A stretch of 64,000 bases of DNA from an uncultured Gemmatimonadales bacterium (GCA_963828735.1 CAWHFW010000005.1:1408001-1472000); one strand, 5' to 3'; counted from the stretch's first letter, positions 58,634-63,653 are shown. Numbers and translations: made by a program. Notes: a model not told the origin generated them from the sequence alone.

Positions 58634-59386
58634 ATGGACATCTTCCGCGAGCCCCGCGTCACCCTCATCGCCCGGCCCCAATTCCTGGAGCCCGCCCACC
58701 TCCCCATCCAGTGGAAGGGCGAGTCGAGCGACGGCGAGCGCATCGCCGAGTTTGCCGGGCGGCTGTGCTACATGAGCCAGCACAACCCGGCGGGCCGCTC
58801 GACGGCCGAGTACCTGCGCAACATCCTGCGGCAGGGTCACGGCTCGGTGTTCGAGCACAGCACGTACGTCATGCTTATCGAGGGGATCTCACGCAGCTGC
58901 AGCCACGAGCTGGTGCGACACCGGGCGGGGTGGGGCTACTCGCAGCTGTCCCAGCGGTACGTCGACGAGTCGCACGCCGCGTTCGTCATGCCCCCGGCGA
59001 TCCAGGGCGACGCGGCACTGGAGGCCGCCTGGACCCGGCAGGTCGAGGCCGCGCAGGCCGCTTATGTCACCGCGGTCGAGCACCTCATGGCGCGGTATGA
59101 GTGGGTGGAGGACCGCGTGCACCGTCGGAAGCTGGCCCGCGAGGCTGCGCGCAGCGTCCTTCCCAACGCGACCGAGGTGAAGATCGTGGCGAGCGCGAAC
59201 GTCCGCGCCTGGCGGACGATGCTGGAGCTCCGTCTCGGCGAGGGCGCGGAGCTGGAGATCCGCCGCATGGCCGTCGCGTGCCTCCGGACGCTCCAGCGCG
59301 AGGCGGCGGCGCTGTTCGGCGATTTCGAGATCTACTCCTCGAGCGACGGGAGCGAGGCCGGACGCGTGGGATTTCACAAGGTGTGA
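58634..59386 (+). CDS. thyX: FAD-dependent thymidylate synthase
   Basis: AGRLCY, GHGSVFEH, RHRx7S motif (RHRAGWGYSQLSQRY), AR.VLPNA, EIR. Confidence 0.95.
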   Translation: MDIFREPRVTLIARPQFLEPAHLPIQWKGESSDGERIAEFAGRLCYMSQHNPAGRSTAEYLRNILRQGHGSVFEHSTYVMLIEGISRSCSHELVRHRAGWGYSQLSQRYVDESHAAFVMPPAIQGDAALEAAWTRQVEAAQAAYVTAVEHLMARYEWVEDRVHRRKLAREAARSVLPNATEVKIVASANVRAWRTMLELRLGEGAELEIRRMAVACLRTLQREAAALFGDFEIYSSSDGSEAGRVGFHKV

Positions 59387-59660
59387 GGCGTTTTGAGAGG
59401 GCGGCGATGGCGAAGGCGCGGGGCTCGATCATGGCCCCATCCGGCTGAACGTCACGTCCTCCCGAGCGAAGCGAGGGATCCTGTCGACGAATGGTCGAGC
59501 CATTCCGCCGCGAGGTCCCTCGAACATTTTCCCTCTCGGGGAGCGCATTTCCCTCGTACATCCCGATGCGCGTCTCGTCCGCACCGTCGCCATCGCCTGC
59601 TTCATCGCGCCGTCGTCCTCGGTGTCTCGAAACTCGTGGCATGAATTCTGGTAAAAACTA

Positions 59661-59689
59661 TTGTGCGACCGAACCCTTTTCCTTACTTT
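59661..59689 (+). promoter_or_regulatory. Sigma70-type promoter for the ATP-grasp/kamA operon
   Basis: TTGTGC-N17-TACTTT in an AT-rich patch with an upstream A-tract. Confidence 0.55.
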
Positions 59690-59759
59690 AGTTTCGTCGA
59701 AGTCTTCAAGTCGTTGCGGCTCGTCTCTCGCGGACGGCCTTTTTTGTAGAGGAGATCCT

Positions 59760-60866
59760 TTGGCAGTTCGGATCGGACTCGCCTTCAATCTCAAACCCAG
59801 TGCGCCGGCGGATACCGCAGCCGGGGCCACGCTCGACTCCCCTCCTTCGGACGATCCCAACAGTCGGGCGCTCCGCGACGATCTCCCTCAACCCGATCTC
59901 TACGCCGAGTGGGACGAGCCCACCACCATCGATGCGGTGGAGCGCGCGCTCAGATCCGTCGGCCAGGTCTATCGGCTCGAGGCCAACGCCAGCTTCCCCG
60001 CGCGGCTCGCACTCATCCAGCCGGACTTCGTGTTCAACATCGCCGAAGGGCTCTACGGCCCGAACCGCGAAGGGCACGTCCCGGCCATCTGCGAGTTCCT
60101 CGGCATCCCATGCCACGCCTCGGATCCGCTGACCCTCGGCCTCGCGCTCGACAAGCGCCGCGCCAAGGAGGTCATGTCCTACCACGGCGTGCCCACGGCC
60201 CCGTTCGTTCTGGCCAGGAGTCCCGCCGACGCGCGGAACGTGCAGCTGCCCTTCCCCCTGTTCGTGAAGCCCGCGTTCGAAGGGTCGGGGAAGGGCGTGA
60301 GCGTCCGGAGCGTCTGCAAGACCCGGAGCCAGCTGGTCAAGCAGGTCTCCAAGCTCCTCGCCACCTACGCCGAGCCGGTGCTCATCGAGACCTACCTGCC
60401 TGGTCCCGAGTTCACGGTCGCGGTGCTCGGCAATGGCGACGAGGCTCGCTGCCTGCCCATCGTCGGCATGGACTTTGAAACGTTACCCAAGGGCGCGCCG
60501 CCCATCTACGGCTACGAAGCGAAGTGGCTGTGGGACTCGCCGGCGCATCCGCTGGAGATCTTCGACTGCCCGGCCCGCATTCCGGAATCGCTGGCCGAGG
60601 ACGTCCGCGCCGCCGCCCTGGCGGCCTATCGCGCGCTCGAATGCCGCGACTGGTGCCGCATCGACATCCGCTGCGACGCCGCCAATCGCCCGATGGTCGT
60701 CGAATTGAACCCGCTGCCGGGCATCCTGCCCGACCCGCGGGACAATTCCTGCTTCCCGAAGGCCGCTCGCGCCGCCGGGATGAGCTACGACGAGCTGATC
60801 CGTGAGGTCGCCGACGTCGCGTGGCGCCGGATCAGCGGCCGTTCACTCCTGGCGGAGGTGGCGTAA
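59760..60866 (+). CDS. D-Ala-D-Ala ligase-like ATP-grasp enzyme 1 (non-canonical)
   Basis: FNIAEG, LDK, FVKPAFEGSGKG, EFTV, IYGYEAKW, CRIDIR, ELNPLPG. TTG start after RBS GAGGAG. Confidence 0.88.
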   Translation: MAVRIGLAFNLKPSAPADTAAGATLDSPPSDDPNSRALRDDLPQPDLYAEWDEPTTIDAVERALRSVGQVYRLEANASFPARLALIQPDFVFNIAEGLYGPNREGHVPAICEFLGIPCHASDPLTLGLALDKRRAKEVMSYHGVPTAPFVLARSPADARNVQLPFPLFVKPAFEGSGKGVSVRSVCKTRSQLVKQVSKLLATYAEPVLIETYLPGPEFTVAVLGNGDEARCLPIVGMDFETLPKGAPPIYGYEAKWLWDSPAHPLEIFDCPARIPESLAEDVRAAALAAYRALECRDWCRIDIRCDAANRPMVVELNPLPGILPDPRDNSCFPKAARAAGMSYDELIREVADVAWRRISGRSLLAEVA

Positions 60867-61876
60867 TGAAGGTGGCGATCCTGTACGATGCCGGCAGCGA
60901 CGAGTGGAGCCCGCAGGACGTGGCGGCGGTCGTGGGCAACGTCCACGAGGTGCGCGACGTCCTCCGGCGCCGGGGGCACGAGGTCGAGCTGCTTCCCGTC
61001 CGCCTGGGCGACTTCCGCTGGCTGAGCCGGATTCGCCGTGTCGATCTGGTGTTCAACCTGTGCGAGGGCATCAACGGGCACGCCCGGTACGAGGAGATGG
61101 TGGTCGGCACGCTCGAGCTGGCCGGCGTACCGTTCACCGGCTGCCGGACGTGGCCCACCACCGTCTGTCACCGCAAGCACATCGCCAACACCCTCCTGTC
61201 GGCGGCCGGCCTTCCGGTGCCCGCCTTCATGCTGGCCCAGGCCAACAAGACGCCGGCGGAGTTTCCGCTCCCGGCCATCGTGAAGCCCTCCGCGGAGGAC
61301 GCGAGCGTCGGCATCGACAATGGGGCCGTCTGCACCTCGAAGCGCGCGCTCAAGAAGCGCGTGGCCCTCATGCTCGAGCAGTTCGAGGAGGTGCTGGTCC
61401 AGGAGTACGTGGCCGGCCGGGAGTTCAACGTCGGCTTCGTCGGCAAGCGGATGCTTCCGGTCGCCGAGATTCGCTTCGACGGCATGCCGGACGGGTCATG
61501 GCCCATCGTGGGCTACGCCGCCAAGTGGATTCCGGGGAGCCCCGAGGACGAGGGGACCCAGCCCGTGTGTCCCGCCGAGGTCCCGGCCGATCTGGCCAAA
61601 CGGCTCTGCGAAGTGGCGCGCGAGGCCTGGTTGCACATGTCGGGTGGCGAGGGCTACGGTCGAGTGGACCTCCGGGTCAACGGCGATGGGCAGCCCTACG
61701 TGCTCGAGGTAAACCCCTGTCCCGATCTCTCGAGCAACGCCGGCCTGGCCCGGATGGGCCGCGCGTTCGGCTGGAGCTACGACGACCTCGTCATGCAGAT
61801 CGTGGACGAGGCCCTCACGCGCTCGCAGAGCCACCGCGCGGCCGCCGCCCTCGTCAGCGGGGTGTCCGCCGCGTGA
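60866..61876 (+). CDS. D-Ala-D-Ala ligase-like ATP-grasp enzyme 2 (non-canonical)
   Basis: FNLCEG, IVKPSAEDASVGI, REFNV, VGYAAKW, GRVDLR, EVNPCP. TAATG overlap. Confidence 0.88.
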   Translation: MKVAILYDAGSDEWSPQDVAAVVGNVHEVRDVLRRRGHEVELLPVRLGDFRWLSRIRRVDLVFNLCEGINGHARYEEMVVGTLELAGVPFTGCRTWPTTVCHRKHIANTLLSAAGLPVPAFMLAQANKTPAEFPLPAIVKPSAEDASVGIDNGAVCTSKRALKKRVALMLEQFEEVLVQEYVAGREFNVGFVGKRMLPVAEIRFDGMPDGSWPIVGYAAKWIPGSPEDEGTQPVCPAEVPADLAKRLCEVAREAWLHMSGGEGYGRVDLRVNGDGQPYVLEVNPCPDLSSNAGLARMGRAFGWSYDDLVMQIVDEALTRSQSHRAAAALVSGVSAA

Positions 61877-62370
61877 GCGGCACGCTCACCCTGACCTCCC
61901 TCCGAAACCTCACCGCGGCCGACCGCGGCCGCATCGAGGGAATCAGCCGTGCGGTGGAGCTCTTCCGCGAGGACGAGATTCCTGTCGCCCTCGAAGTCTT
62001 CGACGGCGCCGTCGCCGGCTCGCCCGACTACATCGCCCTCGGCGCCGAGCACGACGGCGCGCTCGCCGGCTGGATCTGCTGGGGCCCCACTCCCTGTACC
62101 GTTGGCACTTACGATCTCTACTGGATGGCGGTGGATCCCGCGCTGCACGGCGCCGGGATCGGCACCGCCCTCCTCACAGCCATGGAGCGCCGTCTGGACG
62201 GGATCGCCCGACTCATCGTCGTGGAGACCGCAGGCCGGCCCGAGTACGCCGGCACACGCGCGTTCTACGAGGCGCGCGGATACCGAGCGGTGTCCCGGAT
62301 TCCCGATTTCTACGCCCCGGGCGACGATCAGGTGGTGTACGTGAAGGCCCCGGCGGCAGCACGGCGGTGA
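61873..62370 (+). CDS. GNAT family N-acetyltransferase
   Basis: YDLYWMAVDPALHGAGIGTALL (acetyl-CoA motif A), RAFYEARGY. GTGA overlap. Confidence 0.88.
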   Translation: MSGTLTLTSLRNLTAADRGRIEGISRAVELFREDEIPVALEVFDGAVAGSPDYIALGAEHDGALAGWICWGPTPCTVGTYDLYWMAVDPALHGAGIGTALLTAMERRLDGIARLIVVETAGRPEYAGTRAFYEARGYRAVSRIPDFYAPGDDQVVYVKAPAAARR

Positions 62371-62406
62371 CGGTCCGCGATCTCCGCAAGGAGGATGGGT
62401 AGCGAT

Positions 62407-63522
62407 ATGGAAACGTGGCAAGAAGTCCTGAAGAGCAACTCGATCCGGTCGCTCGACCTGCTCGCGGCCAAGTTCGGTCCCGAGCATTTCCCCGATCTCG
62501 ATCGCCTGCGCCTAGCAGCCGAGAACTTCGAGTTCCGTATCTCGCCGGCCATGGTGGATCTCATCAAGTCGCCGGACGACCCGATCTGGCGCCAGTACAT
62601 CCCCACGGTCGAGGAGCTGGACATCAGGGACGGCATCGTGGACTCGCTCAACGAGGACGCGGACAGTCCGGTGCCGAACATCACCCATCGCTACCCCGAC
62701 CGGGCACTCTTCCTCGTTTCCCCGGTGTGCGCGAGCTATTGTCGCTTCTGCACCCGCCGGCGCAAGGTGGGTGACCCCGAGAAGATCCCGATGTCGCAGT
62801 TCGAGAGCGCCTTCCAGTACCTCGAGCAGCACACGGAGATCCGTGACGTCATCATGAGCGGCGGCGATCCACTGCTCCTCAACGACCGACGTCTCGAGGC
62901 CATCCTGACCCGGCTCCGGGCCATTCCGCACCTCCAGATCATCCGGATCGGGAGCCGGGTACCCTGCCATCTGCCGGAGCGGATCACGCCCGAGCTCACG
63001 ACGATGCTCAAGCGCTTTCATCCGCTGTTCATCAACACGCACTTCAACCATCCGGACGAGCTCACCCCGGCCGCGGTCGCGGGCCTGGGCCGCCTGGCCG
63101 ACGCGGGCATTCCGCTCGGGTGCCAGACGGTGCTGCTCAAGGGCGTGAATGACGATCCGGCGGTCATGAAGGAGCTGATGCAGCGGCTGCTCATGGCGCG
63201 GGTCCGGCCGTACTACATCTACATGGCCGATCAGGTGGCCGGCGCCGAGCATTTCCGGACCACCGTACAGACGGGTATCCGGATCATGGAGGCGCTCCGC
63301 GGCTGGACCAGCGGCCTCGCCAACCCGCATTTCGTCATCGACGCCCCGGGCGGCGGCGGCAAGATTCCGTTGCTCCCGGAGTATGTGATCAGCATGAGTG
63401 ACGAGGAGGTCGTGCTCCGGAACTTCCGGGGACAGCAGTATGTCTACCGCCAGCCCCGCGAAACGGGCGTGATCGAGCTCAAGAAGCCGAGGAAGCGCGC
63501 CGCGAAGCGTAGGTCGGCGTAG
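62407..63522 (+). CDS. kamA: KamA-family radical SAM/PLP enzyme, lysine 2,3-aminomutase (alternative start 62395)
   Basis: THRYPDR, CASYCRFCTRRR, SGGDPL, HFNHP.E, QTVLLKGVND, PYYIYMAD, DAPGGGGK (PLP Lys). Confidence 0.92.
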   Translation: METWQEVLKSNSIRSLDLLAAKFGPEHFPDLDRLRLAAENFEFRISPAMVDLIKSPDDPIWRQYIPTVEELDIRDGIVDSLNEDADSPVPNITHRYPDRALFLVSPVCASYCRFCTRRRKVGDPEKIPMSQFESAFQYLEQHTEIRDVIMSGGDPLLLNDRRLEAILTRLRAIPHLQIIRIGSRVPCHLPERITPELTTMLKRFHPLFINTHFNHPDELTPAAVAGLGRLADAGIPLGCQTVLLKGVNDDPAVMKELMQRLLMARVRPYYIYMADQVAGAEHFRTTVQTGIRIMEALRGWTSGLANPHFVIDAPGGGGKIPLLPEYVISMSDEEVVLRNFRGQQYVYRQPRETGVIELKKPRKRAAKRRSA

Positions 63523-63653
63523 GTAAATCGACGCGACGGCGAGGGCGGTCGGCGAAACAGCCGGCCGCCCTCGTCATTGGTGGCACGCTCCACCCTACCG
63601 ACCACCCTCCGCCGGTCTCATATTGGGAAACCCTCCCACCACCCGGATCGCAG

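Follow-up and report, generated by a model that had tools for sequence, protein, structure and literature searches.

What would a bacterium build with a lysine 2,3-aminomutase, an acetyltransferase and two ATP-grasp ligases that resemble D-Ala-D-Ala ligase (Ddl)? The question is posed by a four-gene operon at positions 59,760 to 63,522 of a 64,000-nucleotide stretch of DNA (the whole of which is called the window here) from an uncultured Gemmatimonadales bacterium (GCA_963828735.1 CAWHFW010000005.1:1408001-1472000). A first-pass annotation had described a β-lysine locus of four co-oriented genes, the first three overlapping, and gene calls and sequence agree on that layout. On the plus strand, ligA (59760-60866; TTG start, 368 amino acids) and ligB (60866-61876; 336 amino acids) encode Ddl-derived ATP-grasp ligases of two clades, A and B, both matching PF07478. 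They are followed by a gene for a small, single-domain GNAT acetyltransferase (61873-62370; 165 amino acids) and by kamA (62395-63522; 375 amino acids, likely start at 62407), which encodes a radical SAM enzyme of the lysine 2,3-aminomutase type. ligA and ligB overlap in TAATG, ligB and the GNAT gene in GTGA, and 24 nucleotides separate the latter from kamA. The cassette is a real, widespread orphan pathway. We think it rather probable, on the sequence evidence set out below, that the operon specifies a cytoplasmic, non-ribosomal route to a small N-acetylated amide or peptide containing β-lysine.

The cassette is conserved across Gemmatimonadota

Among 80 related loci, whose labels at the closest end are almost all Gemmatimonadales or Gemmatimonadota, 67 reach 3 kb or more beyond ligA on its downstream side. 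Every one of these shows the order ligA-ligB-GNAT, and the two ligases are never separated. When an even sample of 150 Gemmatimonadota genomes was searched (ligA being counted at 51% identity or more, with two 36% matches excluded), ligA was found in 73. The 63 genomes with a native kamA all have ligA, and in 62 of them the two genes lie 1.25-1.88 kb apart. The four-gene linkage is not due to chance, and the synteny search proposed in the first-pass annotation finds the cassette order conserved across related loci.

A distant aminomutase replaces kamA in some lineages

Downstream of the GNAT gene, 41 of the 67 loci carry the native kamA, seven have an aminomutase only 29-31% identical to it within the fetched flank, and 19 have none there. 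The distant aminomutase sits directly in the kamA slot in five loci, and 18 of the 19 genomes with no kamA in the fetched flank encode it elsewhere. The genome sample tells the same story: nine of the ten ligA genomes that lack the native kamA have a 30%-identical aminomutase (one as a fragment). That protein occurs in none of the 63 native-kamA genomes. It was also looked for in 61 genomes that lack ligA and occurs in one of them; for the remaining 16 such genomes the query was the native protein only, and it gave no match. Because the distant aminomutase is present where the native kamA is missing, the simplest reading of these distributions is that the ligases require the aminomutase product, most likely β-lysine, whichever enzyme makes it. 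Gene displacement thereby backs the proposed dependence on a lysine-type 2,3-aminomutase.

The distant enzyme is 60-61% identical to Streptomyces proteins annotated as lysine 2,3-aminomutase, groups with one of them (support 100) and keeps both of the Asp residues discussed below for KamA. Its usual neighbors are CoA-transferase genes, a GntR regulator, class III aminotransferases and an aldehyde dehydrogenase; the same gene types flank a canonical-type KamA in Deinococcus radiodurans. Such a module may serve lysine catabolism via β-lysine and 3-aminoadipate. CoA-transferase A/B, class III aminotransferase (one passing PRK05769) and aldehyde dehydrogenase genes lie together with the Streptomyces-type aminomutase in some Gemmatimonadales (L139, G153:C4:266000-285500; L135-L138), and the source genome has a CoA-transferase/aminotransferase/aldehyde dehydrogenase module of its own, without an aminomutase, at G000:C2:138088-144046 on the minus strand.

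KamA is most probably a lysine enzyme

KamA passes the KamA subfamily model TIGR00238 (281 against a cut-off of 199) and matches the clostridial enzyme of PDB 2a5h with an E value of 3.6e-110. It has the CxxxCxxC cysteines (C112, C116 and C119) and the pyridoxal phosphate lysine motif, and its residues R121, D279, D316 and K323 align with Arg134, Asp293, Asp330 and Lys337 of 2a5h, which we take to have roles in lysine binding. Both Asp residues are where they had been reported (YMAD and IDAPGGGGK). KamA is the only KamA-family gene product in the genome. As for lysine fermentation (KamA-KamDE-Kdd-Kce-Kal), lysine 5,6-aminomutase (PF09043) gave no match in the genome, nor did it give one in the control genomes.

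One could envision a substrate other than lysine (ornithine, diaminobutyrate, arginine or glutamate), in which case a different β-amino acid would enter the product. KamA scores 436 with the lysine model TIGR03820, under the cut-off of 525, and is shorter than the 417 positions of that model. Cassette KamAs, including three of the four that are fused to ligases, form a clade of their own (support 89 in a quick tree). The C-terminal extension of 2a5h is missing, the match stopping at chain residue 368 of 416 with no Cys beyond, and Cys268 of 2a5h aligns to an Asp; the zinc-binding cysteines and the extension are presumably features of lysine 2,3-aminomutases. Yet TIGR03820 is the best of six specific models, ahead of glutamate aminomutase (382), arginine (310) and EpmB (229, cut-off 369). 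Both Asp residues are kept, whereas BlsG lacks the second, and the replacement gene is close to the annotated Streptomyces lysine enzymes. Another substrate therefore seems to us quite improbable, and lysine is retained in what follows.

By sequence, LigA and LigB are not Ddl

Against the Ddl cut-offs of NF002378 and TIGR01205 (243 and 246), LigA scores 173 and 143 and LigB 141 and 120; all Ddl and Van models are missed. A true ddl lies elsewhere in the genome, at about C5:1,611,240-1,612,255, and passes with 322 and 290. Since the scores fall below all curated cut-offs and a true ddl is present, LigA and LigB are, by profile evidence, not Ddl. In a FastTree phylogeny, a check called for in the first-pass annotation, LigA-type sequences (85 of 88; support 0.96) and LigB-type sequences (73 of 73; support 0.89) form separate clades of their own, apart from Ddl. 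The two window proteins are 31% identical. Clade A is marked by the motifs AEWD, NIAEG, REG and NSCFP, and clade B by NLCEG, DASVG, YAAKW and NAGL. A search of the ESM Atlas with LigB returned Ddl-like clusters only.

For a residue comparison, 88 LigA-type and 73 LigB-type sequences were aligned to Escherichia coli DdlB, the N-terminal part of the LigB alignment being uncertain. Nearly all members of both clades keep K97, K144, E187, K215, R255, D257, E270 and N272 (DdlB numbering; R255 corresponds to LigA R300 and LigB R266), and the predicted RxD and ExN core is present in both ligases, as are the omega loops YEAKW and YAAKW. Since the ATP-binding and catalytic residues are kept, both ligases should be active.

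The substrate side diverges. According to part of a DdlB study (PMC5717164), the donor is bound through its amino group by Glu15, and the acceptor through its carboxylate by Ser281 and through its NH by Tyr216; the oxyanion pocket is made up of Arg255 and the NH of Gly276, and Lys97, Lys144 and Lys215 bind the phosphates. The role of Ser150 is taken from the same source. His63 is replaced by Glu in 87 of 88 LigA-type and in all 73 LigB-type sequences. The earlier claim that the canonical Ddl substrate motifs are lost holds for GGxSxE, which is gone, but not in full, as LigA keeps the equivalents of Glu15 (83 of 88 LigA-type sequences; E50 of AEWD in the window protein), Ser150 (Ser or Thr in 82 of 88), Gly276 (80 of 88) and Ser281 (71 of 88). 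In addition, 84 of the 88 carry Glu at the Asp69 position. LigB has gone further: LigB-type sequences show Ala150 in 64 of 73, Trp216 in all 73, Asp or Cys at 276 in 70, Ala281 in 50 (Ser281 in seven) and, in place of Leu282 of DdlB, Gly in all 73. In the window, Tyr216 is Trp in both proteins, and LigB has Ala at both Ser150 and Ser281. LigA and LigB thus share the fold family and all ATP and catalytic residues with DdlA, DdlB and the Van ligases, and differ from them in the Glu at position 63 and, in LigB, in the loss of Ser150, Tyr216, Gly276 and Ser281. The extra acid would fit a cationic donor. We infer that the acceptor of LigA is still an amino acid and that LigB has moved to another acceptor, possibly free of a carboxylate.

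Two further Ddl-like genes in the source genome (G000:C5:975,660-976,750, minus strand; G000:C3:88,370-89,410, plus strand) share the His63-to-Glu change and the KW omega loop; they pair together (support 0.997) outside LigA and LigB, and the first precedes a gene for a 343-amino-acid protein with no NCBIfam hit. A length-variable linker rich in Pro, Ser and Ala (window positions 59790-59895) runs from the first strand of LigA to AEWD in Gemmatimonadales. A more distant Gemmatimonadota family has a methyltransferase fused to a LigA-like ligase of 36% identity (L104:1441-3462, G011).

Gene fusions link the two ligases and the acetyltransferase

The LigA profile matched 1699 clusters (50% identity; E ≤ 1e-30). 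Among the best 150 of these are 18 LigA-LigB fusions in operon order, three KamA-LigA fusions and one LigA-KamA fusion. The natural LigA-LigB fusions, which occur in operon order only, fit a physical partnership. Ligase-GNAT fusions account for 53 of 58 long GNAT relatives, and the ligase half is LigB-type in all 53; names among them include Anaerolineae and Planctomycetota. Three complete metagenome loci (47-69% GC), retrieved with a distant query, show the same four-gene order.

Ddl is itself a dimer. It is thus worth considering that LigA and LigB form an obligate heterodimer with a single working site, which would make one bond (for instance in a β-lysyl dipeptide) while the second subunit has a structural or regulatory part. 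The one-base overlap of ligA and ligB, the fusions in 18 of the 150 representatives and the unbroken pairing in 67 loci all suit such an arrangement. However, the set of ATP-binding and catalytic residues is complete in nearly all members of both clades, which would be unusual for a dead subunit, and some lineages fuse two LigA-type domains instead. We regard a one-bond heterodimer as improbable and retain two working ligases.

Apparent reverse-order "ligB-ligA" fusions have LigA-type N-terminal halves in ten of ten cases and are LigA-LigA duplicates; they include P0127, P0130, P0131, P0133 and P0140, one is named Deltaproteobacteria, and they represent a separate system or a variant. The apparent GNAT-KamA fusions P0275, P0312 and P0320 look like frameshift artefacts. 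Rhizobium plasmid ATP-grasp matches (34-39% identity) lie outside this cassette in both regions read, as do three plasmid GNAT matches, one of them in a region without annotation. Other neighborhoods combine KamA and ATP-grasp genes with different partners, on plasmids of Streptomyces sp. SAT1 (L089), Thioflavicoccus (L149) and Rhizobium (L150).

The acetyltransferase is not AblB

A pairing of KamA with an acetyltransferase recalls AblA and AblB, which make Nε-acetyl-β-lysine in methanogens, have been proposed in Pelobacter carbinolicus and occur as ablB-ablA in Bacillus; in both cases an operon joins a KamA-type aminomutase to a GNAT enzyme, and β-lysine is the likely intermediate. On this logic, which parts of two studies (PMC3543383, PMC9337991) describe, the operon would be an AblAB-type pathway accompanied by spare Ddl ligases, and the sources do annotate the ligases as D-Ala-D-Ala ligase. 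The evidence speaks strongly to the contrary. As the earlier reading held, the GNAT is not AblB: its similarity to Bacillus AblB is not significant (E 0.23), and the AblB model TIGR03827 has no match in this 97.5% complete genome. The GNAT here is a 165-amino-acid single domain unrelated to the 290-amino-acid AblB, it fuses to LigB, and where kamA has been lost it is still found beside the ligases. Two ligases are obligatory, and they miss every Ddl and Van cut-off, carry the change at His63 and branch apart from Ddl; KamA lacks the C-terminal extension and can be replaced. We give an AblAB pathway with bystander ligases very little credence.

The only solved relative of the GNAT is PDB 2r7h (E 1.5e-25 over residues 22-156), titled "Putative D-alanine N-acetyltransferase of GNAT family", a functional name that is itself putative; no assayed function came to light for it. 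The sole NCBIfam match of the cassette GNAT is to RimI protein N-acetyltransferase, and a weak one (36 bits against 86).

Could the product be a modified macromolecule?

The RimI match, weak as it is, suggests another possibility, in which the enzymes attach β-lysine or an acetyl-β-lysyl group to a protein side chain, lipid head group or wall polymer; the GNAT and a deacetylase would then make up a reversible switch. In its favor, the acceptor site of LigB is opened, and 16 of 24 matches join the GNAT to a histone-deacetylase-family domain. On the other side, no gene for a target or carrier lies in the operon here, the characterized Ddl-fold relatives among the matches join free amino acids, and the obvious target, EF-P, fails. 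In EpmA/EpmB modification, a KamA-family enzyme likewise supplies β-lysine for an amide bond, on EF-P. In contrast, no EpmA over the cut-off was found in this genome or in 60 relatives, KamA scores well under the EpmB cut-off, and the only EF-P of this genome has a PGN tip, not PGK, which led us to reject it as target here. Nor does the tip follow the cassette: among readable best matches (one per genome; four of 31 sequences could not be read by the script), PGN occurs in 11 of 15 cassette-positive and seven of 12 cassette-negative genomes. Attachment to a macromolecule is in our view unlikely, if the least unlikely of the rivals, and a small soluble product is preferred.

One of the GNAT-deacetylase matches is named Desulfobacterales; P0331 and 15 relatives are about 750 amino acids long and consist of an N-terminal region, the histone-deacetylase-family domain and a C-terminal GNAT. 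As for EF-P, most sampled Gemmatimonadota have the tip PGNLR (source genome G000:C3:74424-74972; L162-L191), and some have a second or sole copy with a PGKGG tip.

A candidate pathway

The interpretation given in the first-pass annotation finds partial support. For the small-molecule reading, the following sequence of events can be proposed. KamA would convert L-lysine to β-lysine, a step strongly suggested by its residues, its family and the gene displacement. LigA would then activate a cationic amino acid, most likely β-lysine, as an acyl phosphate (chemistry expected from its catalytic residues) and join it to an amino acid whose carboxylate is free, perhaps lysine or another molecule of β-lysine; the cationic donor and amino-acid acceptor are proposed because the Glu15 and Ser281 sites are kept and acids stand at the His63 and Asp69 positions. 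LigB would add a second amide bond, to an acceptor whose usual carboxylate is either missing or left unbound (diamines, polyamines and side-chain amines are candidates), because Ser281 has become Ala, Leu282 Gly and Tyr216 Trp. The GNAT, beside LigB, would cap a free amine using acetyl-CoA, either directing regiochemistry or neutralizing charge, and in some lineages a deacetylase might conceivably undo the cap; the source genome has two deacetylase-family genes elsewhere. A β-lysine supply and two ATP-dependent amide bonds are well-supported predictions. The assignment of LigA to the first bond and LigB to the second, the capping by the GNAT and its reversal are put forward tentatively, and we hold the exact order of steps given here rather unlikely.

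Several observations count against this picture. All displacement cases come from a single family and could go back to two or three events, and two genomes figure in both sets (G158 is G142, and G161 is G025). Among draft assemblies, two with the ligases (G031 and the genome of L033) gave no aminomutase match, and one with the replacement aminomutase (G092) gave no ligA match. KamA falls short of the cut-off of the AblA model (TIGR03820), and the two Asp residues are also retained by an EpmB-like protein, so that they do not fix the stereochemistry of the product; one fused KamA, P0204, carries Gln at the first Asp. In LigB, backbone atoms might yet hold a carboxylate. Frameshift artefacts may account for at least three of the 53 LigB-GNAT matches, and the fusions, which mostly mirror gene order, show partnership more than reaction order. 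Finally, no transporter or regulator adjoins the operon in the window.

The logic of the candidate pathway has parallels. The blasticidin-type blsG cluster also pairs a 2,3-aminomutase with an ATP-grasp ligase, and a cluster of Streptomyces sp. SAT1 holds a lysine 2,3-aminomutase, two peptide ligases and a GNAT: in each, a β-amino acid is supplied, amides are formed by ATP-grasp enzymes and a product is acetylated. The likeness noted here is one of logic. Those clusters are patchy and carry exporters and tailoring enzymes, whereas the present operon is compact, its four genes occupying the same chromosomal position in many relatives, and its ligases are Ddl-derived. In the pathway to N-acetylglutaminylglutamine amide, an acetyltransferase and an ATP-dependent ligase make an N-acetylated dipeptide solute; its enzyme families and substrates are different and it has no aminomutase, so that it serves as a working analogy only. 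All parts of the cassette come from known families, and by the profile scores their combination belongs to none of Ddl, AblAB and EpmAB. A search of the open literature found no study of this cassette; the survey of ATP-grasp neighborhoods by Iyer et al. (2009) may already predict it.

Promoter, leader and surroundings

The operon was said to have its own promoter. A scan of the upstream DNA for the sigma-70 consensus found no site; however, a pattern on the plus strand at 59653-59689, comprising an A-tract (59653-59657), a -35 element TTGTGC (59661-59666), a 17-nucleotide spacer and a -10 element TACTTT (59684-59689), recurs, with free spacer sequence, in 74 of the 75 upstream regions compared, which come from the window and from those 74 of the 80 related loci that have 200 bases upstream. 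The promoter claim therefore stands because of conservation across relatives, not because of a consensus match, and we infer a promoter of the housekeeping sigma-70 type, with transcription predicted to begin near 59696. A regulon sharing this motif was considered and rejected, as the strict conserved pattern occurs only once in the genome.

Just before the ribosome-binding site, the leader contains a terminator-like hairpin followed by six U residues (59718-59745, plus strand; eight base pairs with one bulge at 59718-59739). The terminator scan called one site, at this hairpin, against 2.0 in shuffled sequences. In 25 leaders, 88.9% of cells are paired and three of eight pairs show two-sided changes, figures inflated by kinship and by the choice of these leaders by hand for resemblance. 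The strict hairpin-plus-U form occurs in 29 of the 75 leaders, and other lineages show a different hairpin at that place. Hairpin folding is only mildly better than in shuffles (median z -0.77), for the whole leader shuffled sequences fold just as well (z +0.74), and no Rfam family covers the hairpin bases. The role of the hairpin may be that of an attenuator or of a stability element. At the other end, a 14-base-pair G+C-rich hairpin without a U tract, read from the sequence at 63540-63573 (plus strand), begins 17 nucleotides past the kamA stop and is a possible 3' end of the transcript; the terminator scan did not call it, and an Rfam match at 63541-63572 is at chance level (24 bits against 40).

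The TTG start of ligA is supported as real by its conservation (TTG in 73 of 75 upstream sets and CTG in two), and is preceded at five nucleotides by a ribosome-binding site, AGGAG (59750-59754, plus strand), within a conserved purine tract. KamA translation probably starts at the ATG at 62407 and not at 62395, because an AAGGAGG directly touches the latter and many relatives align only from residue 4-5.

The GC content of the operon equals that of the rest of the window. A thyX gene (58634-59386) lies upstream, before the promoter, and a β-helix protein gene downstream; in relatives L055 and L069 the gene at the thyX place resembles thyA by its N-terminal sequence, judged by eye. In four soil metatranscriptomes, low-depth contigs cover all four genes and also the flanks and promoter, so that a DNA origin of these reads is possible.

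An orphan pathway in plain sight

The fixed site, the housekeeping-type promoter and the lack of a neighboring exporter suggest a compound that stays within the cell, rather than a secreted antibiotic. Its likely use, judged from gene content and context, is as a stress, storage or charge-balancing solute. One may speculate further, though we hold it rather unlikely as a whole, that the cassette represents a new and widespread class of metabolite: a β-lysyl peptide coupled to a polyamine-like amine, its charge switched by acetyltransferase and deacetylase, with an unrelated aminomutase recruited in some lineages to keep up the supply and an attenuator-like leader adjusting expression.

Ligase matches in public data number 7203 at E ≤ 1e-30 among 8000 scored candidates, a figure that includes true Ddl. 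Thousands of such ligases are labeled D-Ala-D-Ala ligase, and a conserved orphan pathway is hidden behind that label. Roughly half of the sampled genomes of a little-studied phylum, whose closest records are mostly from uncultured organisms, carry its ligA. With only four small genes involved, heterologous expression is directly feasible. If confirmed, the pathway would provide a new β-lysine metabolite, two new ATP-grasp specificities for β-peptide synthesis and a function for the solved GNAT protein 2r7h.

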